From UHGV virus genome UHGV-0175171: a stretch of DNA of 31,955 bases; one strand, given 5' to 3'. The notes under the pieces were generated by a model. That model was not told the origin of the DNA, searched no databases, and saw nothing but the letters and a program-made list of their open reading frames with translations. Each line of letters opens with the position of its first letter. Positions within the stretch are counted from its first letter, which is position 1. This document shows positions 2 to 31,584 of the stretch, one piece after another. Position numbers and translations under genes: made by a program. This stretch comes from a virus.

Positions 2-1738
2 GCGGAAAACTTAAATCTGTATGTGAAAAGGATACGTTTACTTGAAACAATGGATGATCCAGAAGCTGTAATTCTGTGTGATCAGGGGGTATCAGCTTTT
101 AAGGGTCTGAATATATCTGAAGGTGAGCTTGGGCGATGGATGGAACAAGTACAGGCTGGTATGTGGGACGGTTCACATTTAGTACTGGAATCGATCGATA
201 GGTTCAGCCGCCAAAACCCCTTTACCCTTGTAGGTTATCTTTCACGTTTGGTTGAACATGATATCACGCTACATGATGTGTCCCTAAACCTGCTGATTAA
301 CCGTTCTAACAGTGCGATGTTACCAATCGTTACTATGTCAGCACAGCGTGCATATGAGGAATCGAAAATCAAAAGTGATCGTATACGCGATGGGTGGAGA
401 CGGAAGAGGGAACAGGCATTCAATAACGGTACAATCGTTACTAACAAGCGTCCACAGTGGATTGATATTCGTGATGATCAATATGTATTGAATGATAAAG
501 TGCATATAGTAAAAGAAGTATTTCGCCTCGCACAGTCCGGTATTGGTACACCTACTATTGCCAAGATACTAAATGCAAAGGGTGATGACTGGCTTTTCGA
601 AAGTGGGCGGCAGTGGCGGGGTGAATCAGTACATAAGCTTTTAAAGAATAAGCGTGTGACTGGTTCAATTTTTATTAGTGAAATTATTCGTGATTATAAT
701 AGTACTTCAAATCCAGTAGACCAGAAACGATATGAAATGGACGTGTACCCAATAGTCATATCAAAGGAAGAGTTTAATTTAGTACAGCAATTACTACGCT
801 CACGACGTGCCAACACTGGACGAATTAGTACGAATAAAGATACTGATGAATTGAAGAAGTCAAATATCTTTAATAGTATCTGTAGGTGTGGGAAATGTGG
901 TGAGGCAATGTATCATAATGTTGTTAAGTCTCACCGCAACTCAAAAAAGAATGGTAAGTTCACTGAAGAGTATAGATACATTCGGTGTCTTGGGGAACGT
1001 GATAATCTATGTGACAATAAAGCACTACGTTATGAGGTAGTAGAGCAGTTTGTTCTTGAATACCTAAAAGGTATGGATTTTTCCCGTATATTAAAACCCA
1101 ATAACCACAAAAGTGAGATTGATGTACTGAGACTCAATATCGATGAAGAGAAGAAGCATATCAGGGAATACCGTCAGGGGATTGAAAAATTAAAATCAAT
1201 GGGGAAGAAGGTTCCCTTTGATGTGCTGGTAGAGCTTGAGGAATCGCAGAAGCGACTAAGTGACCTTGAAGAAAAAGAAAGTAAGTATACAGATTTAACT
1301 GTTGATACTGAGTACTTAAAATCTGTTGATCCTTCTGTACTATTTGATCAGGGTAACATTGAAGTACGTTCCAGGATTGAAAAGGAATTATCAATGCTAC
1401 TGGAGAGTATCGTACTACATAGACTTGATAAGCACTATATAATCACCCTTGAATATACACAGGTCAACATACTTAAACATGTACTTTTTATTGAGGCTGG
1501 AAAGATTCCAGTACTAATGTCTACTCTTAGTATTGAGAAGTACAATGATGAACATATCTATACTATGCCTTCTTTTTCTATAAGGTGCGGAGAGGGAGTG
1601 CCAGAAATTCATGGTGAGGCTATAAGCCTGGTAGATTACTCCCTTCTATTAAACTACATAGATGGTGTTGATGGTTCAGAGTATGTTTCGGAGTGGATGC
1701 GAACAAATCAAAATTTTATCTTTAGTAAAGAAACTTGA
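2..1738 (+). CDS. large serine recombinase (phage integrase type), 5'-partial: reading frame is open to the window edge
   Basis: ORF 23..1738 has no stop upstream in frame (frame opens at nt 2). Resolvase-type motif ESIDRFSRQ, a recombinase domain, a Cys-rich zinc ribbon (CRCGKCGEAMYH...IRCLGERDNLCDN) and a C-terminal coiled-coil region, the layout of large serine recombinases. The catalytic-Ser N-terminus is expected upstream of the window. Confidence 0.85.
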   Translation, partial: AENLNLYVKRIRLLETMDDPEAVILCDQGVSAFKGLNISEGELGRWMEQVQAGMWDGSHLVLESIDRFSRQNPFTLVGYLSRLVEHDITLHDVSLNLLINRSNSAMLPIVTMSAQRAYEESKIKSDRIRDGWRRKREQAFNNGTIVTNKRPQWIDIRDDQYVLNDKVHIVKEVFRLAQSGIGTPTIAKILNAKGDDWLFESGRQWRGESVHKLLKNKRVTGSIFISEIIRDYNSTSNPVDQKRYEMDVYPIVISKEEFNLVQQLLRSRRANTGRISTNKDTDELKKSNIFNSICRCGKCGEAMYHNVVKSHRNSKKNGKFTEEYRYIRCLGERDNLCDNKALRYEVVEQFVLEYLKGMDFSRILKPNNHKSEIDVLRLNIDEEKKHIREYRQGIEKLKSMGKKVPFDVLVELEESQKRLSDLEEKESKYTDLTVDTEYLKSVDPSVLFDQGNIEVRSRIEKELSMLLESIVLHRLDKHYIITLEYTQVNILKHVLFIEAGKIPVLMSTLSIEKYNDEHIYTMPSFSIRCGEGVPEIHGEAISLVDYSLLLNYIDGVDGSEYVSEWMRTNQNFIFSKET

Positions 1739-3508: not shown

Positions 3509-3533
3509 GGGCATACATTGTGAGTGTATGCCC
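3509..3533. other. 9-bp perfect hairpin (gggcataca / tgtatgccc) between the AP2 gene and the next gene
   Basis: Inverted repeat with a 7-nt loop. An A6 run lies upstream; there is no T-run downstream, so it would only terminate in the minus direction or act as a processing or regulatory stem. Confidence 0.35.
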
Positions 3534-3567
3534 AATTAACAAAATACATTTTACAAGGATATTTATC

Positions 3568-4044
3568 ATGGCAAGAACACCAACAAAAACAGACAATACA
3601 CCATTTATCAAAATCGCTGGAAACTTTAAAAAGTACAGTGATCTTACACAGGAAGGAAAAAACATAGTACTGGATATTATCAGTGAAAGTGCTGGTGAAA
3701 AGAAATATCCAGCAAAGAAAGCATACTATGTTCTATTCAATTGCACTGAAATTAGTAAGGAAACGGTTAAGTACTGGTTACAGCGTTACTATGCAGAAAA
3801 CTCCAATGAGTCAGCACCAACTGACAGTACTGTGCGTAAGTTTCTAACCATAACAAAAAAACTATCTGTTGCCTTAGTAGATGCCCACAGTAGAGGTGTG
3901 AAGCTTTTCAAGGTGGCTAAAGATGGCATGTGTTACTTATCACCAGTACAGAAGTATACAATCGATAAGATGTATAACAATGGTGCATCGGCAGAGGAAT
4001 TGATTATTGAACTACAGAAAATCATAGATAATAATGCGAACTAA
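3568..4044 (+). CDS. hypothetical protein (158 aa), possible DNA-binding protein
   Basis: Internal ATG of ORF 3520..4044 with an AAGGA RBS; the track start at 3520 is a GTG inside the hairpin. The 3' end overlaps the first copy of the TTCGCATAAT-type repeats. No confident domain call. Confidence 0.5.
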   Translation: MARTPTKTDNTPFIKIAGNFKKYSDLTQEGKNIVLDIISESAGEKKYPAKKAYYVLFNCTEISKETVKYWLQRYYAENSNESAPTDSTVRKFLTITKKLSVALVDAHSRGVKLFKVAKDGMCYLSPVQKYTIDKMYNNGASAEELIIELQKIIDNNAN

Positions 4045-4159
4045 ATGGTTCGCATAATACCCGTTTAGTTCGCATAATAGGGCATAATGCGACTTTTGCG
4101 ATCCTCTGTAACCCTTGGTATGACTGGGTTTGTCAATTATGCGAACCATTATGCGACCT
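4031..4159. repeat. cluster of at least five copies of a ~10-bp motif TTCGCATAAT / ATTATGCGAA in both orientations (iteron- or operator-like)
   Basis: Copies at ~4031-4041 (degenerate), 4048-4059, 4067-4078, 4136-4148 and 4148-4159, plus the related GCATAATGCGAC at 4082-4093; followed by a very AT-rich segment (4160-4225). Confidence 0.6.
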
Positions 4160-4695
4160 TATTATAATTATATTTTTCTATTTGATATTTTAAGTATATG
4201 TAATCGCCATATTATCATATGAAGTGATAATGCTCGTAAACTCGCATCATCACTTAAAATAAAAATAAGGGATAAACTTGCGTTTTTTGCAGTCCCTTAC
4301 GGAACTACAAAAGCACGCCCGGTTTCCTGACTCGCTGTAGCTCAGACAACAAAAGTGATTTGGGTAGTACAGTACTGACTTAAAGTGTTTGGGGTCGGAC
4401 TGACGTCCTAAAGTATTAGTGAGTTCTACGCGTCGCATAGCTCCTTGTCTGGGTCGTTCGCTGTTAAAGCTCACTAAGGTACTCAGGGACTTCAGTACTG
4501 ACATACTATCAATTAAGTACTCCCATGTACTCAAACCCAATGTAATTAATACAGTGTGACGCCGCGAAGACGGAGGAACACGCCACCCGCCGAAAGGCAT
4601 ACTATGAGGAAATGAAAGTGAGTAGGGGAACAGTGTAAACCAATCAGACAAGGAAATAAACTGACCTTTTGCACCTAGATATTACTAATAGAACT

Positions 4696-4731
4696 TTATT
4701 CAAAACACCAGATGCAATTAAAAATCTGGTG
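4696..4731 (-). terminator. intrinsic terminator of the minus-strand cassette
   Basis: Stem caccagat/atctggtg (8 bp, 10-nt loop) followed on the minus strand by TTTTG, immediately downstream of the stop of gene 4747..5343. Confidence 0.55.
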
Positions 4732-4746
4732 CTTGAGGTCTCATGC

Positions 4747-5343
4747 TTATTTGGGAAAGGTAAAAATTTCTTCAATATTCATCTTTAATGATTTTGAGTC
4801 GAGGATTATTTTATCTTTGAGGTCATTGAGACTGGAAATCATCAACTCAGGTCTATCATCAGAGACTACTGATCTAAAAACAATAATACCAAAGGCTTCA
4901 TTATAGTATTCCGTTAATCTGTAAAATGACTCTTTTAATTCTTTTGGATATGTTATTTTCCAACGTGCACATGATGATAGTTTTGATGATAATTCAAACG
5001 TTTCATATATCTGTTTAGATATTTGTGAGGACAAATTCTCAAATTTTGATTCTGACGAACGAACAGTAATGATATCAAAATGCAATTCTTGTATCTTTAA
5101 TACCTGTTGGTCATATTCAGCCATAACAGCGGTTACATGATTAAACCCTGCTTCATTGTTCTTTGTCTGTAGCCAATGAGGGGCTGCTTTGAATGCTTTA
5201 TAAGCAACCCAAGCAGTAAAGGCCGTACTGGATGCACTAATCCAATCCGTGAAACTCCCCCATTCAACATCATTGAAAATATATTTTATCAAAGAGGCAC
5301 CTAAAAGTAGAAAAAGTATTATTTTTAGGGTTGATTTATTCAT
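4747..5343 (-). CDS. membrane protein with two N-terminal TM helices and a helical cytoplasmic domain; paralog of 5355..6065
   Basis: ORF; N-terminus MNKSTLKIILFLLLGASLIKYIFNDVEWGSFTDWISASSTAFTAWVAYKAF shares the inter-helix motif (F/V)EWGSFTDWISASS with the adjacent gene. Confidence 0.6.
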   Translation of the reverse strand: MNKSTLKIILFLLLGASLIKYIFNDVEWGSFTDWISASSTAFTAWVAYKAFKAAPHWLQTKNNEAGFNHVTAVMAEYDQQVLKIQELHFDIITVRSSESKFENLSSQISKQIYETFELSSKLSSCARWKITYPKELKESFYRLTEYYNEAFGIIVFRSVVSDDRPELMISSLNDLKDKIILDSKSLKMNIEEIFTFPK

Positions 5344-5354
5344 TGTCTAATGCC

Positions 5355-6065
5355 TTAAAAATAAATGAAAAGTGTATTTAATGCACGATTATTTGAAAAA
5401 ATGTAGGTTTTGGCTTCTGATAGATGCGTTGATAATCTAATTGTATTAGGGATTAAGCTATCAAAAGTGTTATACATCTTGCGTCTTACGTGGTCAAACT
5501 CAGACATTTTTAAACCCCGCAATAAAGCTATTATATTACTAATGTGTCGAATTAATAATTCGACGGTATTTGTGACCGCAGTACATATTTTTTCAAATTC
5601 AGATGTAGGCTTGTAACGAAATAACTTCATTACATTAATGTCATTTTCTAACTGCTGAGATGTAACTTCCAACTCAGTAATGGCATCAAGTAAATATGCT
5701 TGCATTGACTCTAAAACAGAGTCTTTAAGATGGTGATCATATCCATTAACTCTATGCCTATAGTTTTTTAGTTTGAATTCAATTTTCTCAATAGTAATGA
5801 ATAGTTTTGGGTAATGCTGTGTAATAATTTGTTTTTGCAGCAAGTAAGCATCATCTCTATATTTGTCTTTTTGCCAACGAGAGTAGACATAGAATGCAAA
5901 AATCAAAGTGATAATACTGGAACTTGCACTGATCCAATCGGTGAAACTACCCCATTCAAATCCCTTACTACCAGAAAATAGAATCTTAACGAGAACTAAG
6001 ATAGCTACAAATAAAAGTAGCGAGACTAGGCCAATAAGGGTAGTGTTTGCAATTTTAATATTCAT
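5355..6065 (-). CDS. membrane protein with two N-terminal TM helices and a helical cytoplasmic domain; paralog of 4747..5343
   Basis: ORF; motif GFEWGSFTDWISASSSIITLIFAFYVY. Its start overlaps the stop of the upstream gene (ATGA at 6062-6065), suggesting translational coupling. Confidence 0.6.
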   Translation of the reverse strand: MNIKIANTTLIGLVSLLLFVAILVLVKILFSGSKGFEWGSFTDWISASSSIITLIFAFYVYSRWQKDKYRDDAYLLQKQIITQHYPKLFITIEKIEFKLKNYRHRVNGYDHHLKDSVLESMQAYLLDAITELEVTSQQLENDINVMKLFRYKPTSEFEKICTAVTNTVELLIRHISNIIALLRGLKMSEFDHVRRKMYNTFDSLIPNTIRLSTHLSEAKTYIFSNNRALNTLFIYF

Positions 6066-6613
6066 AATTTATCAGCTATGTTAATTTCACTATAGAGTAA
6101 GTCTTTCAATTTAATCAAAGCTTCCCAAATTTCAGTTGGCTTATTGCTGCAATTTCTTAGTAATATTTCATCATTTTCATATTTACTCAATGATGGATCA
6201 TAAAACCGTGTTCCTAATTCTTGAAAATCATTGATAGCATTAGTAACCGTCCAAATCGCATCATGCATTTGTGGTGTCATGTATAATGTATAATCAAGAA
6301 GGAAGTCACTTGCTTTACTTTTAATTAAATCCTGTTTATAAAGCATAATTTGATCTAAAAGATCACCATCATCATAAAAATTAAAATTTGCTGGAAGATT
6401 CAGGGAATTAATGAACTGAATGAAAGGTTTAATAATTTGCTTTTTTTCTTTCAATTCATCTTCGAGTACTTTGAATAATAGTTGCTTTTTAATCTTTTCG
6501 TTTTCAGATTTTTTAGTGATGAGTTGACTTGCCAATGTTACACCCGCAGCTATTAAAGCACCGCCTAAAGTACCGCCGACTGCAATGAGTTGTGTAATGG
6601 TTTCAGCTTCCAT
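6062..6613 (-). CDS. membrane-anchored protein (one N-terminal TM helix, helical soluble domain), unknown function
   Basis: ORF; N-terminal ITQLIAVGGTLGGALIAAGVTLASQLI hydrophobic segment followed by a KE-rich helical region. Confidence 0.55.
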   Translation of the reverse strand: MEAETITQLIAVGGTLGGALIAAGVTLASQLITKKSENEKIKKQLLFKVLEDELKEKKQIIKPFIQFINSLNLPANFNFYDDGDLLDQIMLYKQDLIKSKASDFLLDYTLYMTPQMHDAIWTVTNAINDFQELGTRFYDPSLSKYENDEILLRNCSNKPTEIWEALIKLKDLLYSEINIADKL

Positions 6614-6680
6614 GATTTTAGAAATCCAATATATAAACGTGAAAAAAGAATTTTACCATAATAACCAATTTGACGTAAAC

Positions 6681-6757
6681 TATCAGCGATATCCCCCTCC
6701 CATAAAGGGTAGGTGGTTTGTTTAGTTTGTTGGTGTGTGAGGGGGATATCGCTGATA
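6681..6757. repeat. perfect 19-bp inverted repeat (TATCAGCGATATCCCCCTC ... GAGGGGGATATCGCTGATA) with a 39-nt G/T-rich spacer
   Basis: Read directly: arms at 6681-6699 and 6739-6757. A second hairpin (gtgctgc/gcagcac, 6761-6780) follows immediately. Confidence 0.7.
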
Positions 6758-6820
6758 GAAGTGCTGCCAGTTAGCAGCACTGAGTAATGTATGGTGGGTC
6801 TGCGTTAGTACACTTAACGT

Positions 6821-6846
6821 TTGGTTATGGTTATGGTTATGGTTGA
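6821..6846. repeat. hexamer tandem repeat (GGTTAT)x3 + GGTTGA
   Basis: ttggttatggttatggttatggttga read directly, ~20 nt downstream (in coordinates below) of the stop of gene 6864..7778 on the minus strand. Confidence 0.7.
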
Positions 6847-6863
6847 GATTGACTCAATATATT

Positions 6864-7778
6864 TCAGCAGTTTCTTACGATTCTATCGTATCGTTCTACA
6901 AAAGTTATTATTTTCAACTGATCTTGATTATATGTATCAACCCATTTCTTCATAGCATCTTCTATTATGTAGAGAAAATCAACAAGGTTAAAGTAGGTCG
7001 TATCCCCAATAGTGGTTGTCTTAAATGAATTTCTTTGATGTATTGCAAAACTAATTCGTCTCACCTTCTCTTGTTTTACTTTCTGACTATCAAGATTAGA
7101 CATATGTATTAATGAATTGCGGAGTTCCCAAAGCTCATCAGAAGTAACTTCCAAAGAAGATAAATCTGCATAGGTGTTAAGCCATTTTGTAAAGTTATGG
7201 TGCTGACCAAAATCAACCCAGGCAATTGTATCAATGAATGAAAAAAGTAACTTTATGCAGCTTAAGTAATGTTTATTATTAAATAGATAGTGAATTGGTT
7301 CAAAATGATCATCCTTAAGAAGTTGAGCCATGTCAAAAGTATTACCGACATAGTATTTTGAAAGATAATCATTATGATTTGAAAATTCGTATCCTGAGAA
7401 TTTATCAATATGATGTTGACGAAGTGGTTCAAAATCTAAACGATGTTGGTTCATTATTTTACCGTTCTGGATTGGGGTAATCAAATGTAAGCAGTCATCA
7501 CCAAGATTATAAGGTGCTAAAACATCAGAGAAAATTAAAGTCAAATTGTCTGTACGCATCATTGCATTAATTTTTGCTAATGAAACTCCATTTTCTTTAT
7601 CTTTGATTTCTTGTGGAATATCACCAAAATTTGCATCTGAAAGGTCAAGGCCAACTTTAGATAAGAGGAAATGACACATTTCCTCTTCTGTTCCTGAATG
7701 CTCATACAGTACAAAAGCAACATGTGTTATTAAATCATCAGTTGCGAAGTAATATAAGTTAAGAAGTTTATGTTTCAT
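6864..7778 (-). CDS. hypothetical protein with an R-N-x3-H (HEPN-like) motif; candidate abortive-infection or RNase-type effector
   Basis: Start moved to the ATG at 7778 (GGAGGA RBS, 5-nt spacer); the track start at 7790 is a GTG. Motif ELRNSLIHM at residues ~220-225 fits the HEPN R-[N]-x3-H signature. No other domain recognised. Confidence 0.5.
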   Translation of the reverse strand: MKHKLLNLYYFATDDLITHVAFVLYEHSGTEEEMCHFLLSKVGLDLSDANFGDIPQEIKDKENGVSLAKINAMMRTDNLTLIFSDVLAPYNLGDDCLHLITPIQNGKIMNQHRLDFEPLRQHHIDKFSGYEFSNHNDYLSKYYVGNTFDMAQLLKDDHFEPIHYLFNNKHYLSCIKLLFSFIDTIAWVDFGQHHNFTKWLNTYADLSSLEVTSDELWELRNSLIHMSNLDSQKVKQEKVRRISFAIHQRNSFKTTTIGDTTYFNLVDFLYIIEDAMKKWVDTYNQDQLKIITFVERYDRIVRNC

Positions 7779-7790
7779 AAGTTCCTCCAC

Positions 7791-14781
<6,991 letters not shown>

Positions 14782-23832: not shown

Positions 23833-24477
23833 ATGGCAATTCCAAACAATGTACTAAGTAACCCAGAATTAGTAAAGTACTGGAATCTAATGCGGGGTGA
23901 TAATAAGTCAGTTCTTACAGAAAGGGAATTATACCAGTGTGGAATCATGGTAAAACTGATTGATCTATTACCTCCTACAGGAAGTAATCTATACCTTACT
24001 GATGCAGTAGTAGAACAGAATATCAATGGCATTGTATATAAACCAATTCCAGATCTAATTGATTCATCCTTTGCGAACTATGTAGAAAAGAATCAGATCA
24101 ATAATACCGGTACTACGTTTAAGATTAGTAACGTAAGCCAGGATTATCTTTCCCTTGCTTTAAGAGGATTGTGGAAAGATGCCAAAGTTAATATCTGGAT
24201 GGGGATCGTTAACCCTGCAACAGGTGCACTTCTTTACCGTTATCGTATTTTTAGTGGATATATAGATTATTTTAGCAGTGATTTTTCTGTAGATGGAACT
24301 AACACACAGAATGAAACCACTGTTAATCTCAATTCCATATGGAAGAAATTAGACCAGACACAACGTCTACTATCAAGTACATCAATTCACCAATCAACCC
24401 ATAAGGGTGATAAGTTCTTTGATCTAATCGGAATACTAAATAGTTCAGAGCAGTTTTGGCAAGCGAGTAAAAAATAA
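23833..24477 (+). CDS. minor tail protein (gpL-like N-terminal region, lacking a Cys cluster)
   Basis: Weak similarity to the lambda gpL N-terminus (YKPIPDL vs YQPYPI; TFKISN vs TLTVSN, recalled); position and TAATG coupling. Confidence 0.45.
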   Translation: MAIPNNVLSNPELVKYWNLMRGDNKSVLTERELYQCGIMVKLIDLLPPTGSNLYLTDAVVEQNINGIVYKPIPDLIDSSFANYVEKNQINNTGTTFKISNVSQDYLSLALRGLWKDAKVNIWMGIVNPATGALLYRYRIFSGYIDYFSSDFSVDGTNTQNETTVNLNSIWKKLDQTQRLLSSTSIHQSTHKGDKFFDLIGILNSSEQFWQASKK

Positions 24478-24866
24478 TGAATGGATTTATTACAGAATAT
24501 CTTAGTACTCTAATCGGTCAGCCAATTGTATACGGTGAAAATGATTGTCATATCATGTCTCTGACTGTTATTGATATGCATCTTGGTACAAATTACAGGG
24601 ACGAAATCTATCAGAAATATACGTCACCTACTGGCGGTCGAAAGTACGCAAAAGAACATTGTTCATATAAATCACTAAATGCCCTATGTAATGATCTGGG
24701 TATAAAACAAGTAGAACCATTTGATGGGGATATCCTAATTACTGGCTCCCAATCTACTGTGTACTGGAGAGGTAAAGTAATCATTTTAATCGATGGTGTC
24801 TATACAGTAATGAAATATGAACCAATAGAAAACAATTATAAAATTTATAGATTCGGAGGGAAATAA
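24477..24866 (+). CDS. tail tip assembly protein (gpK-like position; possible Cys-containing peptidase-like motif)
   Basis: 129-aa ORF with TAATG coupling; motif GENDCHIM; call is by position only. Confidence 0.35.
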   Translation: MNGFITEYLSTLIGQPIVYGENDCHIMSLTVIDMHLGTNYRDEIYQKYTSPTGGRKYAKEHCSYKSLNALCNDLGIKQVEPFDGDILITGSQSTVYWRGKVIILIDGVYTVMKYEPIENNYKIYRFGGK

Positions 24867-24867
24867 C

Positions 24868-27800
24868 ATGGCAGTAGCAGCCGTATTAACAGCAGTAATA
24901 GCAGGTGCATCAGCCGCCGCCGCAGCTTACGCAGCAGTGGGTCTTGCAGCATCTATCGCTATTGGTGTTGGTGTAGCAGCATTATCCTATGTTGCATCCT
25001 CCCAGATGATGCGTGTTGGAGATCAGGGGGTAAACTATCCCAGTACTGGAACGGTTAACTCTCGAAGTACTTCACCCAGTACTGGGATACCGATTGTATA
25101 TGGCGGTACTAATAGAAGCCTGACCGAAGAATCATTTGTTAAGGTAGGTTCCATTGTCGTATGGCAGAACGTCTATAAGGGACAAAGTAACCAACTATGC
25201 ACAGTGCATGCTATTAGTATCGGGGAGATCGGACGTGCTCCAGGTGCACAATCTGGTGCCGTAATTAAACAGGTATACTTTGATAACAGTCCAATCTTAC
25301 TAGATGATGCCGAAATAACCAGTGAGGGTATTGTTTCTACATCCCTTATGCGTGAGAAGTATCGTAACTTCCTCCAGCTCGAAATTCGTTTTGGAAAGCC
25401 GTCTTATGGTGGTTCTATGACACTTGCCCGGCAATATGGCGGATCTCGCTGGACTGATGAAATGCGTGGTGATGGATTAGTACAGGTTTGTTCGGTTATC
25501 CGTAAGACTAATGGTAGTCTGACTGATGGTATTTTAGTGAATCAAAACTATGCACTTTCATTGGAGATGAAAGGACGTCTAATTTATGACCTTACTGATA
25601 ACATTCGTAAACCCTCCAGTAATCCACCGAGTCAGTTATATGACTTTATCACAAATAATGAATTTGGTTTCAACACTGATCCTAATGATATTGATATTGC
25701 ATCATTTCGTAATTGTGCAATGTACTGTAAGAATAATGAACTATATTCAAATGGTGCTATTGCCTATGATAAGTCATATAAAGAAAACCTTGAAAGCATC
25801 TTGTCTACATTCGGTGGTGTAATATATGAATCGAATGGTATTATGTATCTCACCGTAGATACTGCCGATGTCCCACTATATCATTTTGATGAAAAAAACA
25901 TTCTCGGTACTGTGAATATCACAACTGGTTCTAATACGGATTATGCGAACGTATTCGATGTGACCTATACAAACCCAGGCGGTGATTACTCAGAAGATAT
26001 TATTCGTTATCCAAGTGATACGCTTACAAATGAAACAGTGGTACGGGATGGTTTAATCATTAAAAAAGACCTTAATCTAAAATGGATTCAGGACAAAAAA
26101 CAACTTGCTAAAATGGCTAATACCGAACTATTAAAATCTAAGTATGTTCTTAATAGTATAACTTTTAACACATACGTTACCGATCTCACAGTCTACGATG
26201 TTTTTACACTCAGTTTCAAAGAAGCCGGATTTGTTAATAATAAGTTCCGTGTAATACAACGTACTGTACCGATGACCGTAGATAAGACTGGTGTCGTACA
26301 GATTACCGCTATAGCCTATGCGGACGGCATATATCAGGGGAAAGACCATGGACGATTCCCACAGGACGGGATCACAAATCTACCAAACGCGACATACGTA
26401 GAACCTCCATCAAACTTGCAGGTGCAGAAACTTGGTGCAACCGTTAACGGTAATGCCGTGCTTATGACATGGGATTTAAGCCAGGATTCAAGCGTACGGG
26501 GTTATAAGATTAGATATAAACGCAGTGATTCGAATACATGGATCTCGATTGGTAACGTAGGACAGTACACCACAGAGTTTCAGATACTGAATCTAATCCA
26601 CGGTGTTAAATATGATTTTGGTATTGAGGCGTATAACACTCTCGGTTATTCATCTGAGTTAGTTGCAATTTATAATCAAACTCCACAGGTGATTTTTGCC
26701 CTACCAAAGATTACTAATCTTGATATGACTAACGATAATATGGGATTGAACCAGACTTATTCACAAGATTTTATATTCAGATGGGATGAACAAAGTACTT
26801 TGCCAGTAAATGGAAAACGATTCTCTGATTTTTTCAAATATTATGAAATTCGTGTGTATGACCGTTATCGTACATATATTAAGTCGTACTTTACAACGGA
26901 CTTTAACTGGACATATACCTTTGCAATGAATCAATCTGATGGACTTAACAGATATCGTGTAATTGGTATTATTGCCCACGGTCACGGTACTGGAATTTAT
27001 TCAGAAGAAGTACAGATTGAAGTAAGTAACCCACAGCACCCCCAATTACTTGGTGTACGTTTGCGTAATGGCTATGATAATGTGTTCTTAGAATGGGATG
27101 AATCAAACGTACCAGACTATTCTGGTGTAGTGTTCCAGTGTGCTAAGGATGAGGGTTTTAGTTCGGATGTTCACTATTTCAGTTCTTCTAACCGCTTCTC
27201 AGCTTCATTTGGGATAGAGGATGGATCGTGGTTCGGACGTCTTGCAGCATATGATGTAATGGGACAGGATGAATTAGTATGGTCGCCAACTATTGGTTTT
27301 AACCAGAATACTAAAGTTCCGTACTCAAAGCTAAATGATGATGTTGTAGATGAATTACTGAATTCAGATGTTGCCACAGGCATTATTGAGAAACATATTG
27401 TTGATGACCTTGGTTCACGCTGGCAGGTTCAGGTGACGAATAACGGCAACGTGTCAGGTGTATCACTTGCTAATGACGGGAAAAACTCAGCATTTACGGT
27501 AATGGCAGATCGTTTCAGTATTATTTCTACTGACAGTGCTAAACAGACTGATAAGGTATATCCGTTTGTAGTTCAGAATGGTAAGACTTATATCAATAGT
27601 GCGGTCATTGGAGACGCGAGTATAAACACAGGGCAGATAAATGACCTTGCCGTTTCGCGTGCGAAAATTCAGATAGCAGCAATCGACTCAGCTCGCATAG
27701 CCAATGCTTCAATCCTTAATGGACACATAGTTAACGGGGTTATCGACTCAGCAAAAATATCCCAGCAAATTCAATCTACAAACTGGAATGGTAGTACAGG

Positions 27801-28425
27801 CTGGATGATCAATAAGAATGGTAAGGCAAGCTTCCAGGACGTATCAGTACGGGGTAATATTCAGGCAACCAGTGGAACCATGAATAATGTTACTATTAAC
27901 CAGGACTGTACAATTCTTGGTACTCTTAATGCATCACGTATTGTTGGTGATCAGTGCAGACCTCAAAGTACTGGAGTTAATCGACAGGGGAACGTATGGG
28001 CACCTCCTGGGGTAGAATTCCCAGAAAACTATAGACCAGAACCAGGTCGACTATATGTAGGATTGCGTATTAAAGGGGAGGACTTTGCAAGGACTCTGAA
28101 TAGTAATATGAGTTTTTATTTTACATGCTGGAAGTGGAACTATTTTCAAGTGTTTGTTGGTGGGGATGGAATAGCAAACCGTCTATTATGGGGTTATGAT
28201 GCAGGTTCCGGTGGTGAAGATACGCCAGTTTCATATAAAATTGATAATATTCAAATTCCTGCTGTAGGTAGGGGTAAGATGAATTATCTATATGTAATGG
28301 CTTCAGATGGCCGTAGTGGTTCATGTGGACTGGATATAGGCGAACATCAGGGAAACAATAATCTACCAGGTGACAGACTTGATCTCTTCTTATTCCGTAG
28401 TGGTGAGAACCCCGTTAGTAACTAA
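24868..28425 (+). CDS. central tail fibre / host specificity protein (lambda gpJ-like) with an N-terminal gpI-like hydrophobic region and a fibronectin type III domain
   Basis: C-terminal SGTMNNVTINQDCTILGTLNASRIVGDQ matches lambda gpJ SGTLSNVTIAENCTINGTLRAEKIVGDI (recalled). N-terminal Ala/Gly-rich hydrophobic stretch and GIPIVYGG resemble the gpI C-terminus. FN3-like segment around nt 26400-26670 (YKIRYKRSDSNTWISIG...YDFGIEAYN). Confidence 0.85.
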   Translation: MAVAAVLTAVIAGASAAAAAYAAVGLAASIAIGVGVAALSYVASSQMMRVGDQGVNYPSTGTVNSRSTSPSTGIPIVYGGTNRSLTEESFVKVGSIVVWQNVYKGQSNQLCTVHAISIGEIGRAPGAQSGAVIKQVYFDNSPILLDDAEITSEGIVSTSLMREKYRNFLQLEIRFGKPSYGGSMTLARQYGGSRWTDEMRGDGLVQVCSVIRKTNGSLTDGILVNQNYALSLEMKGRLIYDLTDNIRKPSSNPPSQLYDFITNNEFGFNTDPNDIDIASFRNCAMYCKNNELYSNGAIAYDKSYKENLESILSTFGGVIYESNGIMYLTVDTADVPLYHFDEKNILGTVNITTGSNTDYANVFDVTYTNPGGDYSEDIIRYPSDTLTNETVVRDGLIIKKDLNLKWIQDKKQLAKMANTELLKSKYVLNSITFNTYVTDLTVYDVFTLSFKEAGFVNNKFRVIQRTVPMTVDKTGVVQITAIAYADGIYQGKDHGRFPQDGITNLPNATYVEPPSNLQVQKLGATVNGNAVLMTWDLSQDSSVRGYKIRYKRSDSNTWISIGNVGQYTTEFQILNLIHGVKYDFGIEAYNTLGYSSELVAIYNQTPQVIFALPKITNLDMTNDNMGLNQTYSQDFIFRWDEQSTLPVNGKRFSDFFKYYEIRVYDRYRTYIKSYFTTDFNWTYTFAMNQSDGLNRYRVIGIIAHGHGTGIYSEEVQIEVSNPQHPQLLGVRLRNGYDNVFLEWDESNVPDYSGVVFQCAKDEGFSSDVHYFSSSNRFSASFGIEDGSWFGRLAAYDVMGQDELVWSPTIGFNQNTKVPYSKLNDDVVDELLNSDVATGIIEKHIVDDLGSRWQVQVTNNGNVSGVSLANDGKNSAFTVMADRFSIISTDSAKQTDKVYPFVVQNGKTYINSAVIGDASINTGQINDLAVSRAKIQIAAIDSARIANASILNGHIVNGVIDSAKISQQIQSTNWNGSTGWMINKNGKASFQDVSVRGNIQATSGTMNNVTINQDCTILGTLNASRIVGDQCRPQSTGVNRQGNVWAPPGVEFPENYRPEPGRLYVGLRIKGEDFARTLNSNMSFYFTCWKWNYFQVFVGGDGIANRLLWGYDAGSGGEDTPVSYKIDNIQIPAVGRGKMNYLYVMASDGRSGSCGLDIGEHQGNNNLPGDRLDLFLFRSGENPVSN

Positions 28426-28487
28426 AACTAAATAAATATGGGTAGCCTAAAAACTACCTATAATAATTAAAAAGGGAACTAAAGGGA

Positions 28488-28754
28488 ATGGTAGAATTGG
28501 TAATTGCAGGGATTGCAGTTTTTCTAACTTTTGTAGCATTAATCTGGACTATCATTCGTGATAATAAGACTGATGATGCAGAAATAGAAGCACGTCTTGC
28601 CTCAGTAGAAACACGACTTGCACTTGTAGAACAATCTGTTACTACATTACGAAGTGAGCATGAAGCTATGAAGATTACTCTTAAGTCAGTTGATGAATCA
28701 ATCAGACGACTTGAAGTAGATATTGCACGTATTCTTGTGATACTTGAAAAATAA
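28488..28754 (+). CDS. small protein with an N-terminal TM helix and a coiled coil (unknown function)
   Basis: 88-aa ORF with an AAGGGAA RBS; hydrophobic N-terminus then heptad-like helix; ends at a strong terminator. Confidence 0.45.
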   Translation: MVELVIAGIAVFLTFVALIWTIIRDNKTDDAEIEARLASVETRLALVEQSVTTLRSEHEAMKITLKSVDESIRRLEVDIARILVILEK

Positions 28755-28779
28755 AAAGGGGCTTAATGCCCCTTTTTTA
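28754..28779. terminator. strong bidirectional intrinsic terminator
   Basis: Perfect stem aaaaggggc/gcccctttt with a 5-nt loop, between the convergent stop codons at 28752-28754 (+) and 28777-28779 (-); T-runs on both sides. Confidence 0.8.
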
Positions 28780-29223
28780 TTTGTTAATTAAATCTTTAAT
28801 CATTTGGTCAAGTCTATTCGGTGTCTGACGATACCATAAACTATCCTTTGCCTGTTTAATTGCTTCTGTATAATTATTGTTTTGTAATGCAATGATCATC
28901 TTTTTAAACTTCTTAGTACCACCTAAGCCTAACTGAAAAATCATAATAACCATGAAGTCTTCCCAGTCCTGTGGTAATTTCAAATTTAAGGTAGATAAAT
29001 CACGTTTGGCAATGCCAATATCTTTATCCAGTAGTTTATCTGCTTCATCCTCGTTAATGCCGTTAGAGAACGATTCAGAGGCTTTTAGTAGATGTCCATA
29101 TCCAATCGTATCTTTGTTCTCACTACATTTATACACCCAGAATTTACCATTGCGATAATAACCCATATGGGCTTGGTATTCTTTCGTACCTTCATATACT
29201 TTTAATTTTTCTCTTAAACACAT
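28777..29223 (-). CDS. endolysin, T4-type lysozyme (glycoside hydrolase family 24)
   Basis: LKVYEGTKEY...TIGYGHLL and SLWYRQTPNRLDQM match T4 lysozyme LKIYKDTEGYYTIGIGHLL and SRWYNQTPNRAKRV (recalled). Start placed at the ATG at 29223 (GAGG RBS); the ORF is open to 29277. Confidence 0.85.
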   Translation of the reverse strand: MCLREKLKVYEGTKEYQAHMGYYRNGKFWVYKCSENKDTIGYGHLLKASESFSNGINEDEADKLLDKDIGIAKRDLSTLNLKLPQDWEDFMVIMIFQLGLGGTKKFKKMIIALQNNNYTEAIKQAKDSLWYRQTPNRLDQMIKDLINK

Positions 29224-29259
29224 AAATACCTCATAAATTATTGTTTGTGGGGTATTTAT

Positions 29260-29688
29260 ATGAAATGGACAATGCATGATCCTGAGACATGGGATTATGA
29301 AGATATAAATGACGGGAGGTATGCAGCTTTTGTATATATGATCACTTTTGACGATGGTTCATATTATTTTGGTGTAAAGTCAATCTTCAAAGGTATTCGG
29401 GATGTAAAGAAGCTGAAGCCAACTACAAAGGAATCCAACTGGGAGAATTATTATTCTTCCTCAAAGAAAGTGCAGGCAATGGTCGATTCAGGTCTGAACT
29501 ATGAAAAACAAATACTATGGTGTTTCAGTACGACGAATGAAGCCGAGCAGGTAGAAGCGGCGTTGATTCTATTCTTAGGACAGCAATCAAATAATTTGAA
29601 TCTTGCCGTGATGTGTAAAGTACGGCTTGGTAAAAATCGTTCTGAAACATTCAAAGTACTGCAACAATTATTAGAGAGGTTATCATGA
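29260..29688 (+). CDS. free-standing GIY-YIG nuclease domain protein
   Basis: AAFVYMITFDDGSYYFGVKS (GIY...YIG motifs), downstream conserved Arg and an acidic NEAEQVE segment with a terminal Asn; ~143 aa with no obvious DNA-binding extension. Confidence 0.55.
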   Translation: MKWTMHDPETWDYEDINDGRYAAFVYMITFDDGSYYFGVKSIFKGIRDVKKLKPTTKESNWENYYSSSKKVQAMVDSGLNYEKQILWCFSTTNEAEQVEAALILFLGQQSNNLNLAVMCKVRLGKNRSETFKVLQQLLERLS

Positions 29689-30278
29689 AATGGAAGAATG
29701 GTCATTCACCAGATGATATGAAAAAATTTGTTAATAAAAATTCCCCAAAGATCGGTAAACACTTCAAAAAAGAACTAAGTAATCGTATGCGTAATGTTAC
29801 CCAACAGATACAGCATAAAATTAACCAGGAAGTAGATGGTGGTGTAATTCCATATACGGGTAGAGCGATGTACTTTAATTTTAAACGGCTTAATGAATTT
29901 GAGAGTGTAAACCAGATTATAGTACTGGGAAATCAGGCGAGATACTTAAAGCATATTATTGACCCTGATTATGTAGGGAATAAGGAATATAAAGCGATCC
30001 CATACCAAAACGCCAAGAAGACAAAACAGGGTAATATAAGTCAACTTAAATCAAAGCGTAAGAACGATAAATATAAAAAAGTGAAGAGTAAGACGTCTGG
30101 AAAGACATATCTAATCGACACTACCAAGAAGACGAAAACGAGTAAGGAACGTGTTATTGGTTATTATGGAAGTGTTGGAAGAAAACCAATATTTGATTTT
30201 TATGACACAACCGAAAAAATGGTATTACGACAACTTCAAACTATGAGTGGTACATTCGAATATAAATGGAGAAAATAA
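29685..30278 (+). CDS. hypothetical Lys-rich basic protein
   Basis: ORF coupled to the upstream gene (ATGA overlap); highly basic C-terminal half. Confidence 0.5.
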   Translation: MKWKNGHSPDDMKKFVNKNSPKIGKHFKKELSNRMRNVTQQIQHKINQEVDGGVIPYTGRAMYFNFKRLNEFESVNQIIVLGNQARYLKHIIDPDYVGNKEYKAIPYQNAKKTKQGNISQLKSKRKNDKYKKVKSKTSGKTYLIDTTKKTKTSKERVIGYYGSVGRKPIFDFYDTTEKMVLRQLQTMSGTFEYKWRK

Positions 30279-30598
30279 TGAATATACTTGATCAATATCC
30301 CTGTTATGACCATACCGTACTGGATGAATTCCTATTTCAAAACGTCAAACCTGTAAGTGTTACTTTGCCATATGACAAAGTGTTTTCGGGTAGCAAGTTA
30401 ATTAAAAAGAAGGTAGATAAGAGTAAAGGGGATTTGATTGTATTCAGTTTCAATCTAAACAATATTCCGAATGTTAATGATGGTGATGTACTCGATACCG
30501 TATGTCTTGGTGATAATAAGACAGTAGCAGTACTGTCATGTTTTAATCAAGTCTACAAAGGTCATCGCGTTTGGTCAGTCGTATGCCAGTTACAATAA
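30278..30598 (+). CDS. hypothetical protein
   Basis: ORF with a TAATG overlap and a GGAG RBS; the track start at 30266 is less likely. Confidence 0.5.
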   Translation: MNILDQYPCYDHTVLDEFLFQNVKPVSVTLPYDKVFSGSKLIKKKVDKSKGDLIVFSFNLNNIPNVNDGDVLDTVCLGDNKTVAVLSCFNQVYKGHRVWSVVCQLQ

Positions 30599-30609
30599 GG
30601 AAATGAAAT

Positions 30610-30900
30610 ATGATAAATGCAATCTCCGTATTAATTAGTACGATAATGAGTCTTTTTACAAAGACAAAAATAATTGAAAAAGAGGAACATAAAACTAACA
30701 CTGATGGACAGATTGAGACAAATAAAATTGAAATTGAGCAAAACACCTTTCACTGGAGAAACTTCCTTGGTTTTGTACTTTCCCTAATCATTTTATATAA
30801 TTGGATAATTGTTCCTGTTCTTGATGCGTTTGGTATTGTATTAATACAAATTCCACTAGGTGAGCTACTACAGATACTTTTAATCATGGTGGGTGGTTGA
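30610..30900 (+). CDS. small membrane protein (2-3 TM helices), holin-like
   Basis: 96-aa ORF with an AAGGAAA RBS; hydrophobic N-terminus and two C-terminal hydrophobic helices; in the neighbourhood of the endolysin. Confidence 0.4.
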   Translation: MINAISVLISTIMSLFTKTKIIEKEEHKTNTDGQIETNKIEIEQNTFHWRNFLGFVLSLIILYNWIIVPVLDAFGIVLIQIPLGELLQILLIMVGG

Positions 30901-31584
30901 CTTAGTAATTACAAATAATGACCTCCAGGTGTTCATCCAAGATGTAGATAGAATCTGTGTTAAGGCATAGCATTGATTGAAGCTAATTTGATTGAACTCA
31001 TATGATTTTTTACGAGCCATGCCATTAACATCTTTATATGAAAAGATCATCATTTGGCTAAGCTCTGAAAATTTATATAAAGTACTAATGTACTGGGTTA
31101 TGCCATCTCGTTGATCTGGTCTTATTTCGATTTCCCAAACTTTTAATATGTCTTTTTGTGAAGAAAGCACAGATAAATGAGTTTTAAAATCTAACCATAA
31201 TGTCTCAATTTCATTATTGAGTTTTTCATAATGTGGGTCTGTTTTTCCCAAATTTTTGGTGCCTAAATAGCAATACATATTCATTATGTGCTCAAATACT
31301 TTTTCTGACTTTAATTTAGCATCGGATAAATGAACAATAAAATTATTTGCTTGTTCGAATCCTTTCGTATGTGTCTTTTCATTGTACCAATTTTTGACTT
31401 TATATAGTGTATAAGTAGCAATGCTTGCCAATACTGTATCCATAATGGCAGATACAGTAGAACTATTAAATTCATGAAAACCTAAGACATCTATATATAT
31501 CGGGATCAGTATTCCGACTGCTAAACAAGCTATATGAGAAAATTTAATTTGTTTAACTAATTTTTTAAAATGATGTTTTTTCAT
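30880..31584 (-). CDS. membrane protein with two N-terminal TM helices; third member of the 2-TM family seen at 4747..6065
   Basis: Inter-helix segment GFHEFNSSTVSAIMDTVLASIATYTLY resembles GFEWGSFTDWISASSSIITLIFAFYVY of 5355..6065. Start uncertain (ATG at 31584 preferred over the TTG at 31626; no clear RBS). Confidence 0.5.
   Translation of the reverse strand: MKKHHFKKLVKQIKFSHIACLAVGILIPIYIDVLGFHEFNSSTVSAIMDTVLASIATYTLYKVKNWYNEKTHTKGFEQANNFIVHLSDAKLKSEKVFEHIMNMYCYLGTKNLGKTDPHYEKLNNEIETLWLDFKTHLSVLSSQKDILKVWEIEIRPDQRDGITQYISTLYKFSELSQMMIFSYKDVNGMARKKSYEFNQISFNQCYALTQILSTSWMNTWRSLFVITKSTTHHD

Follow-up and report, generated by a model that had tools for sequence, protein, structure and literature searches.

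The 250-bp spacer at positions 6614-6863 of the window (the whole 31,955-nucleotide stretch of viral genome UHGV-0175171 that was analysed) is best explained as a composite of several elements, whose core, at 6652-6758, would be one copy of a conserved prophage element. At this core, a sigma-70-type promoter would start + strand transcription that runs rightward and immediately enters a long hairpin. From the comparison of related sequences, we hold with moderate confidence that the element is a promoter-driven 5' hairpin RNA of the prophage backbone, which would modulate rightward transcription into cargo genes while competing with a leftward cargo promoter.

The prophage and the genes flanking the spacer

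The window is an Escherichia coli siphovirus-like prophage integrated in ybhA, and its spacer region is 100% identical to E. coli strain FDN-24, NZ_CP158147. A serine recombinase lies at the left end (Table 1), and the attachment site of this integrase abuts its own gene. Past the recombinase, the window encodes a lambda-type terminase, a portal protein and then a protease-capsid fusion; siphovirus-type tail genes come next. The terminase large subunit is split in the window; the prophage may therefore be decaying. The terminase is at most 33% identical to that of any deposited phage, and DNA searches of the phage collection with window positions 6400-7000 (601 bases) and 4000-9000 (5 kb) return no match.

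The spacer separates a 304-aa gene from the 183-aa gene that opens a three-protein operon, and these gene borders are those given by an earlier reading made from the sequence alone (hereafter the sequence-only reading). The 304-, 183-, 236- and 198-aa proteins have no significant Pfam match and no PADLOC match, and their PHROGs matches are weak (E ~2e-4) and lead to families of unknown function. Only eight related clusters of the 183-aa protein are found among 5.8 billion. The 236- and 198-aa proteins represent the family most often located to the left of the hairpin in related phages, where the neighbouring gene families are likewise uninformative on function. Together, the leftward genes (4747-7778) sit between the integrase and the small terminase gene. 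The equivalent slot in relatives holds an OLD-family nuclease, or SMODS and SLATT genes, which marks this slot as a cargo hotspot.

Table 1. Features of the window discussed in the text, in window coordinates.
Feature	Position	Strand	Remarks
Serine recombinase	23-1738		Left end of window; Pfam; sole recombinase found
Three-protein operon (183, 236, 198 aa)	4747..6613	-	N-terminal membrane segments
183-aa gene	6062-6613	-	First gene of operon
Predicted promoter of 183/236/198-aa operon	6650..6679	-	-35 TTTACG 6679-6674; 18-nt spacer; extended -10 TGgTAAAAT 6658-6650
Predicted rightward promoter of hairpin RNA	6652..6681	+	-35 TTTACC 6652-6657; 18-nt spacer; -10 TAAACT 6676-6681
Hairpin (HP) element	6680..6758	+	Stem 6680-6699 / 6739-6758; loop 6700-6738
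Family loop motif in window	6707-6723	+	GGGTAGGTGGTTTGTTT; carries GGT insertion
Second hairpin	6760-6767 / 6774-6781	-	8-bp stem, 6-nt loop
Hexanucleotide microsatellite	6822..6844	.	(GGTTAT)n on +, (CCATAA)n on gene strand
304-aa gene	6864-7778	-	Convergent with predicted hairpin RNA

The inverted repeat of the window

The sequence-only reading had described a 19-bp perfect inverted repeat at 6681-6757 with a 39-nt loop. The repeat and its loop length are borne out, whereas its extent needs correction: the arms are perfect over 20 bp (6680-6758) and reach 23 bp if one mismatch is allowed. The 20-mer arm has only two sites in the window at up to three mismatches, and 0.00 are expected from shuffles. 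RNA folding, proposed in that reading as a check, places the region 6680-6782 far from shuffled sequence on either strand, with -57.0 kcal/mol (z = -9.4) on the + strand and -51.4 kcal/mol (z = -9.7) on the - strand. Searches of the window for tRNA, tmRNA and Rfam families find none, and Rfam at E values up to 10 yields only chance microRNA or snoRNA matches of 13-16 bits.

A version of the hairpin region with ~87% identity is present in 88 of 5426 complete E. coli genomes, strain 55989 among them. It adjoins a homologous 183-aa gene but has another gene, of 267 aa, upstream of it. Homology with the window spans the 183-aa gene and the promoter region and ends at the outer base of the far arm. 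Five differences separate the arms of the two versions. Four of them are compensated on the opposite arm (GATATCCCCCTC versus GACACGCCCCAC), and the fifth gives T·G on the + strand. Counted over all 5426 genomes, the element occupies a single place per genome in 90, always beside the 183-aa gene; with one copy per genome and a fixed context, a dispersed repeat or MITE of the host was rejected. In the viral collection, a 16-mer arm pattern gives single-arm matches only, which were taken as chance. Finally, one relative (L031; L numbers denote the related loci described below) carries a 33-bp repeat with unrelated arm sequence and the same loop core, between its 183-aa and 236-aa genes.

A hairpin family with variable stems and a conserved loop

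Related prophages were collected as 73 loci, fetched by homology of their small terminase subunit and turned so that its gene reads on the + strand. These loci were scanned for perfect inverted repeats and then searched for stems anchored on the loop motif. The scan found many stems of 13-23 bp whose arms share no sequence and whose loops have a motif in common, GGGT(A/T)GGTTTGTT, usually with GG before the 3' arm. The family comprises at least 35 distinct hairpin sequences, and at least one hairpin is found in about two-thirds (39/60) of the loci having at least 4 kb upstream of the terminase gene. Plain alignment with MAFFT brought the loops into register but not the stems, so a three-sequence seed and model-based realignment were used instead. 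A covariance model seeded with these three members recovered 29 sites, and a second model (R2), built from the 29, recovered 35. Among these 35 is the element of the window, which R2, although trained without it, matches at 6695-6743 on the + strand (23.1 bits, E = 0.007). In the window copy, the motif carries a GGT insertion, the loop is expanded and the model score is low.

A scan of one genome per species for the canonical promoter plus loop, a pattern that excludes the window's own variant, returned three genomes (one Mangrovibacter, two Enterobacter), and on this count the family looks confined to prophages of Enterobacterales. Eight typical related loci have no match to Rfam, tRNA or tmRNA models. 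A literature search on the loop motif retrieves only human mitochondrial primers, and one on CAGTACTG retrieves nothing relevant. The hairpin thus appears to represent an undescribed structured family. Likeness of the loop or arms to KOPS, Chi, IHF or CRP sites was considered and dropped, as family variants break each consensus.

Selection on a single strand

Pairing within the stems is maintained while their sequence changes. In the model-based alignment, 94.5% of cells pair, versus 64% in shuffled and 43-57% in slid controls, and all eight stem pairs have changed on both sides; as the stems were found by complementarity and the alignment was fitted to the structure, these figures lean towards structure. 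A less circular and independent view comes from the mismatches left by a stem search that penalises all mismatches equally. On the terminase strand, all ten transition-type mismatches pair a T of the 5' arm with a G of the 3' arm, and none is A·C (binomial p = 0.002); four further mismatches are uninformative on strand. Folding energies agree with this asymmetry, at -28.6 versus -24.1 kcal/mol for L092 and -59.3 versus -49.0 kcal/mol for L031. The loop motif lies on the terminase strand in 39 of 43 instances, as do all model matches in the terminase-oriented loci (L035-L107) except that in L053.

The confinement of mismatches to T·G and the strand of the loop motif indicate that the hairpin is selected as a single strand of + polarity. 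In the window, this strand is antisense to the genes flanking the element. Such selection argues against both a duplex operator and a terminator on the - strand. G·T pairs are tolerated in single-stranded DNA too. A strand-biased rate of C-to-T mutation could contribute to the mismatch asymmetry.

The sequence-only reading had judged the stem to be well beyond what a terminator needs, and the stem does behave as a selected single-stranded structure, as seen in its compensatory changes, covariation and U·G asymmetry. The two roles suggested for it fare worse. A protein-binding site on the arms is at odds with arms that are not conserved and a loop that is, and a regulatory RNA stem, if it belonged to the flanking operon, would lie on the strand opposite to the selected one.

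Predicted promoters at the stem base

A TANNNT hexamer on the + strand, with its end between -12 and +4 of the stem base, accompanies 28 of 34 distinct members. The control, on the opposite side and strand, has the hexamer in 13 of 34, mostly as poorer matches. These -10 hexamers (TATAAT, TATGAT, TAAAAT, TACAAT, TAGAAT, TATACT and TACACT) occur in left flanks that are mutually non-homologous. In the largest subgroup, the -10 box is part of TTTACC-N18-TA(C/A)ACT, and 20 of the 24 matches to TTTACC-N17-19-TAHAMT in related loci lie just upstream of the hairpin. With a -10 box at the stem base, transcription would start at or just inside the stem, and the hairpin would thus form the 5' end of a rightward RNA.

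The predicted rightward promoter of the window is weak, matching at 8 of 12 positions, and is unlisted by the promoter scan, which requires 9 of 12. The start of the hairpin RNA is predicted near 6688. The same DNA, read back to back with it, also holds the predicted leftward promoter, which scores 9 of 12 with TG in the scan and is the sole promoter candidate of the 183-aa operon. Among relatives of the largest subgroup, the TGGTAAA box of this leftward promoter is as well conserved as the rightward boxes. Both promoters are consensus predictions. In the window, in L025/L032 and in L031, the perfect DNA repeat reaches 2-17 bp outside the predicted RNA start. The extension is 17 bp in L031 and includes the -10 box there. 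This feature is not accounted for by the RNA model.

Proposed role of the hairpin RNA

The product of the rightward promoter would start with the hairpin and be either a non-coding RNA or a 5' transcript leader. We infer from the boxes at the stem base that the hairpin is transcribed. The stem is free to vary as long as pairing is kept, whereas the G/U-rich loop, GGGU(A/U)GGUUUGUU..GG, is conserved. Lying on the terminase strand, the RNA would be antisense to the 304-aa gene at its right. Read leftward, the same DNA would serve as the extended -10 promoter of the 183/236/198-aa operon, and the two promoters should compete for RNA polymerase.

Conservation of the loop implies a conserved partner, which it would contact and which may be a second RNA or a host factor, for instance RNA polymerase. 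The 19 loci searched contain no sequence complementary to the loop at up to two mismatches, and the best RNA duplexes of the loop there are scattered and take no conserved position. The outcome would be control of rightward transcription into or through the accessory genes, whether by antisense action, by protection of the 5' end or by a modification of the polymerase like that caused by put RNA (see the final section). Any one of these downstream mechanisms is put forward with much less confidence than the RNA itself.

Gene neighbourhoods and mosaic junctions

Clustering of the ORFs around 27 members reveals no obligatory neighbour. The right-hand gene is convergent in ~20 of the 27 contexts (window included) and co-directional in seven, and no single downstream function suits all copies. 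Many of the convergent cases involve a conserved 103-aa gene that ends with its stop codon 2-10 nt from the stem. Among the co-directional cases, L075 and L053 have a ribosome-binding site and a start codon ~30 nt past the hairpin, and in L039 a terminator is located 26 nt downstream of it.

When two loci have near-identical hairpins, their flanks often share nothing beyond 0-1 nt from the stem base, as on the right in L097/L099 and on the left in L101/L103. The window and L025 part in the same way on the right. Gene blocks are permuted around the hairpin, two copies of which flank one block in L088. L053 contains an inverted copy with both flanks unrelated. These arrangements identify the hairpin, at the level of sequence, as a conserved island at mosaic junctions.

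The main rival to the RNA reading takes these junctions as its starting point. It holds that the hairpin is a structured single-stranded DNA site, similar to attC or to a rolling-circle origin, that marks or mediates the exchange of accessory modules, and that the promoter boxes are incidental. Abrupt loss of homology at the stem base, permuted blocks, the paired copies of L088 and the inverted copy of L053 all suit such a site, and the mismatch asymmetry fits folded single-stranded DNA as well as RNA. We nevertheless regard it as unlikely. Neither a tyrosine recombinase nor an HUH nuclease is found in the window or beside the hairpin. Conservation is distributed in the reverse of the attC pattern, and the attC core (RYYYAAC/GTTRRRY) is absent from the sequence. 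Moreover, a -10 box recurs at promoter-like distance in non-homologous left flanks, and ordinary homologous recombination also turns conserved islands into mosaic junctions.

A bolder version, rather improbable in our judgement, makes the hairpin the organising signal of an integron-like cassette system, a strand-specific fold with conservation in the loop, not the stem, at which accessory and defence blocks would be inserted, inverted and swapped between phages. It would explain the homology breaks at the stem base, the permuted blocks and the two copies flanking a block.

Terminator and operator readings of the repeat

The repeat might instead serve the leftward 304-aa gene, as its terminator, as a stabilising 3' hairpin or as a site for RNase III, and would insulate the 183-aa operon from read-through. 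Its position invites this reading: a leftward gene ends immediately ahead of it in ~20 of 27 contexts, and in the window the leftward operon promoter comes immediately after it. The - strand folds well too (z = -9.7), and a 20-bp duplex is sufficient in length for an RNase III substrate. This reading is doubtful nonetheless, since no U run follows the stem on the + strand (AAGUGCUG) or on the - strand (UUUACGUC), other members are alike in this respect, and a terminator scan finds nothing in 6614-6863. The loops, of 18-39 nt and conserved in sequence, are unlike those of terminators, and all ten transition mismatches would be A·C on the - strand. Orientation tracks the terminase strand, not the neighbour, and in seven contexts the gene is co-directional or there is none to terminate.

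A DNA operator, with a dimeric regulator on the two 20-bp arms controlling the operon promoter, is highly improbable. In its favour are the perfect match of the two arms and the exact coincidence of the end of the promoter-proximal arm with the leftward -35 box, but the arms are unrelated among members while a 13-nt loop core is conserved, the half-sites would be 59 bp apart, centre to centre, and a duplex site would not yield strand-asymmetric mismatches.

The second hairpin and the microsatellite

The hairpin next to the repeat, which the sequence-only reading had placed at 6761-6780 with a 7-bp stem, is real, although its stem has 8 bp and runs from 6760 to 6781. A second small hairpin after the main one occurs in the window and a few relatives and is not conserved across the family. 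It is kept together with the end of a 304-aa-type gene in an E. fergusonii variant (L027) and is absent from L025/L032, a variant with a different upstream gene. It is probably, on this distribution, a 3'-end structure or weak terminator of the 304-aa gene.

Similarly, the hexamer repeat is confirmed with narrower borders, 6822-6844 in place of 6821-6846, and comprises 3.8 copies at 100% identity. The tract begins ~20 nt past the stop codon that ends the 304-aa gene. Comparison of copy number among isolates, as the sequence-only reading had proposed, shows that it varies from two to six: in 21 loci that encode an identical 183-aa or 304-aa protein, the spacer measures 244, 250, 256, 262 or 268 bp, and the sole difference among these is the presence of 2, 3, 4, 5 or 6 CCATAA units, plus one SNP in L009. 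The contrary case raised in that reading, an invariant repeat beside a plain terminator, is therefore not what these loci display. Over 3.1 kb of flanking DNA, 0 SNPs separate a 5-copy allele from the 3-copy window allele, 1 SNP separates a 4-copy allele from it, and 5 SNPs separate the 2-copy lineage. A span of 2-6 copies, with 0-1 SNPs between the 3-, 4- and 5-copy alleles, marks the tract as hypermutable, its copy number changing faster than point mutations accumulate.

The sequence-only reading had proposed that slippage alters the promoter spacing of the downstream operon, which would make the tract a phase-variation switch. The rapid change in copy number speaks for a switch; the location of the tract makes this role very unlikely. 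Downstream of the tract, ~140 bp with both hairpins intervene before the -35 box of the operon promoter is reached, and the promoter scan and inspection find no promoter-like hexamer pair flanking it on either strand. It is also outside every plausible reading frame, and the E. fergusonii variant, with a single degenerate hexamer unit, keeps the same layout. A 61-aa + strand ORF that starts in the microsatellite and would encode (Met-Val)n was rejected, being interrupted in the same variant. From their position, the microsatellite and the small hairpin are best assigned to the 304-aa gene, as parts of its 3' untranslated end. For all its frequent slippage, the tract falls in no predicted promoter spacer or reading frame. 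The tract serves as a caution that a truly hypervariable repeat need not be a switch.

Significance

If transcribed as predicted, the hairpin would define a new family of structured RNAs, restricted to a group of enterobacterial prophages without a cultured representative. The position of the element coincides exactly with the slot in which these phages carry exchangeable accessory and defence genes. It would show how cargo expression is tied to the phage backbone, by divergent promoters that overlap and by a hairpin in an antisense or leader RNA. In addition, the element is a sequence landmark for locating cargo hotspots.

Comparison with known systems

Bacterial contingency repeats are located within reading frames or in the spacer that separates a -35 box from its -10 box. 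The hexamer tract resembles these loci in that its copy number outpaces point mutation. In contrast to them, it is located in a 3' untranslated spacer.

The attC sites of integrons have conserved R and L boxes at the stem base and a variable loop, are acted upon by the tyrosine recombinase IntI and accompany co-oriented, mostly promoterless cassettes. The hairpin family shares with them strand-specific folding, variable sequence and length, a position at the borders of exchangeable cassettes and the possibility of several copies flanking blocks. It differs in its conserved loop and variable stem base, in the lack of an IntI-type recombinase and in neighbouring genes that point in either direction. 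The stem base of the window, CTATCAG...CTGATAG with flanks GTAAA and AAGTG, does not contain RYYYAAC ... GTTRRRY, and the stem bases of the members are unrelated to one another. As for an integron integrase, Pfam finds only the serine recombinase in the window, and no recombinase is present among the neighbouring gene families.

Lambda OOP, acting against cII, and E. coli GadY, acting on the gadX-gadW spacer, are transcribed from their own small promoters on the opposite strand and have a stable 5' hairpin. Both have defined terminators and function through antisense overlap. The hairpin RNA would resemble them in having its own (predicted) promoter, an initial hairpin and a transcript that enters the 3' end or spacer of a convergent gene. 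Unlike OOP and GadY, it has no + strand terminator-like site in a scan of 6758-7790 of the window, and conservation is lost past the hairpin even when close relatives are compared. What is conserved is the loop, and antisense action in cis, as in the overlap function of OOP and GadY, would not need this.

Intrinsic terminators with long stems that resist antitermination exist (PMC10325885). The hairpin shares with intrinsic terminators a stable, G+C-containing intergenic stem-loop. However, their loops have 3-8 nt, whereas that of the hairpin has 39 nt in the window and 18-39 nt in the family and is conserved in sequence. Moreover, the hairpin is selected on the strand opposite to the flanking genes.

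The put RNAs of phage HK022, which act within the nascent transcript as antitermination elements independent of factors, offer, together with the convergent antisense RNAs above, the closest functional parallels to the preferred reading of a promoter-driven hairpin RNA. The putL RNA pairs from transcript position 3, just downstream of PL; a put RNA has ~70 nt and forms two stem-loops and a triplex; and its partner is a conserved host protein, the zinc-binding domain of the RNA polymerase beta' subunit (PMC9378689). As with put, the hairpin would be a structured phage RNA at or within a few nucleotides of a transcription start, which in this case is predicted, and it has one working orientation and a structure conserved together with specific unpaired residues. 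In contrast to the two stem-loops and triplex of put, it consists of one long stem, of 9-23 bp in most copies, and a G/U-rich loop of 18-39 nt. Most copies face a convergent gene, not an operon. Model R2 finds no significant match in the immunity region of HK022 (24000-31000), where its best hit, of 9.8 bits, falls inside IS903. A conserved host partner of the put type would explain why the loop is conserved across divergent phages. By this analogy, the hairpin may be a one-hairpin, factor-independent antitermination RNA, a functional analogue of HK022 put that is unrelated to it in sequence.

Probable selection on the AGTACT palindrome

The palindrome AGTACT, frequently embedded in CAGTACTG, is in strong excess throughout this prophage family, both in the window and in the related loci L040-L103. 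The window carries 57 AGTACT sites against an expectation of 10.6, and 19 copies of CAGTACTG against 0.4; L099, a related locus, has 83 and 35 of them, where 5.2 and 0.2 are expected. All three codon phases are represented among the sites, as is intergenic DNA, a distribution that points to selection on the DNA itself. A single AGTACT site lies in the window's accessory region (4516-8491), which therefore looks foreign to the prophage backbone. AGTACT also adjoins many of the predicted hairpin promoters and, in the L097 group of loci, forms the hairpin stems.

Neighbours and decay of the hairpin

Among the ORFs surrounding 27 members of the hairpin family, the most frequent left-hand neighbour (18 loci) is family F3, to which the products of 4747-6065 in the window belong. 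These proteins of about 200-250 aa have one N-terminal membrane segment followed by a long helical tail, and their genes sometimes occur as two or three paralogues in tandem, as in the window.

A decayed copy of the hairpin lies upstream of the 183-aa gene in the E. fergusonii-type locus (L027, L028 and L029). About 10 bp of its stem are left, and the loop motif is gone. The upstream gene of the 304-aa type has been cut short at 189 aa, and one degenerate unit is all that is left of the (GGTTAT)n microsatellite.

Other repeats and the structural genes

Past the end of the plus-strand gene at 3520-4044 lies a cluster of TTCGCATAAT / ATTATGCGAA motifs, which includes a 15-bp perfect inverted repeat (4044-4058 / 4136-4150) and could serve as an array of operators or as a complex terminator. 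The core of a second inverted repeat, in the tail-fibre-like gene, is the over-represented CAGTACTG palindrome. Nested tandem repeats in the gene for the protease-capsid fusion specify a stretch that is acidic and rich in Glu. In the window, two separate ORFs make up the terminase large subunit, which is intact (627-638 aa) in several loci with identical neighbours, so the window prophage may be defective.

Repeats, terminase ORFs and cargo genes in the window and related loci
Feature	Locus	Coordinates	Details
TTCGCATAAT / ATTATGCGAA motif cluster	window	4031-4159	4 or 5 copies, inverted and direct
Terminase large subunit	window	8706-10620	two ORFs, 8706-9158 and 9208-10620
Nested tandem repeats	window	13147-13411	periods 6 to 48 nt; 613-aa gene
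TATCCCAGTACTGG ... CCAGTACTGGGATA	window	25036-25089	14-bp perfect inverted repeat, 26-nt loop; 1185-aa gene
Cargo-slot genes	L031	3000-4820	
Cargo-slot genes	L025	10380-11662	
Cargo-slot genes	L032	1450-2732	

A slot for cargo genes

In relatives, the slot that separates the hairpin region from the terminase gene is occupied by an OLD-family ATPase/TOPRIM nuclease, or by a SMODS nucleotidyltransferase together with a SLATT protein, gene content that marks it as a defence or cargo hotspot. None of the four genes that the window itself has here matches any known defence family.
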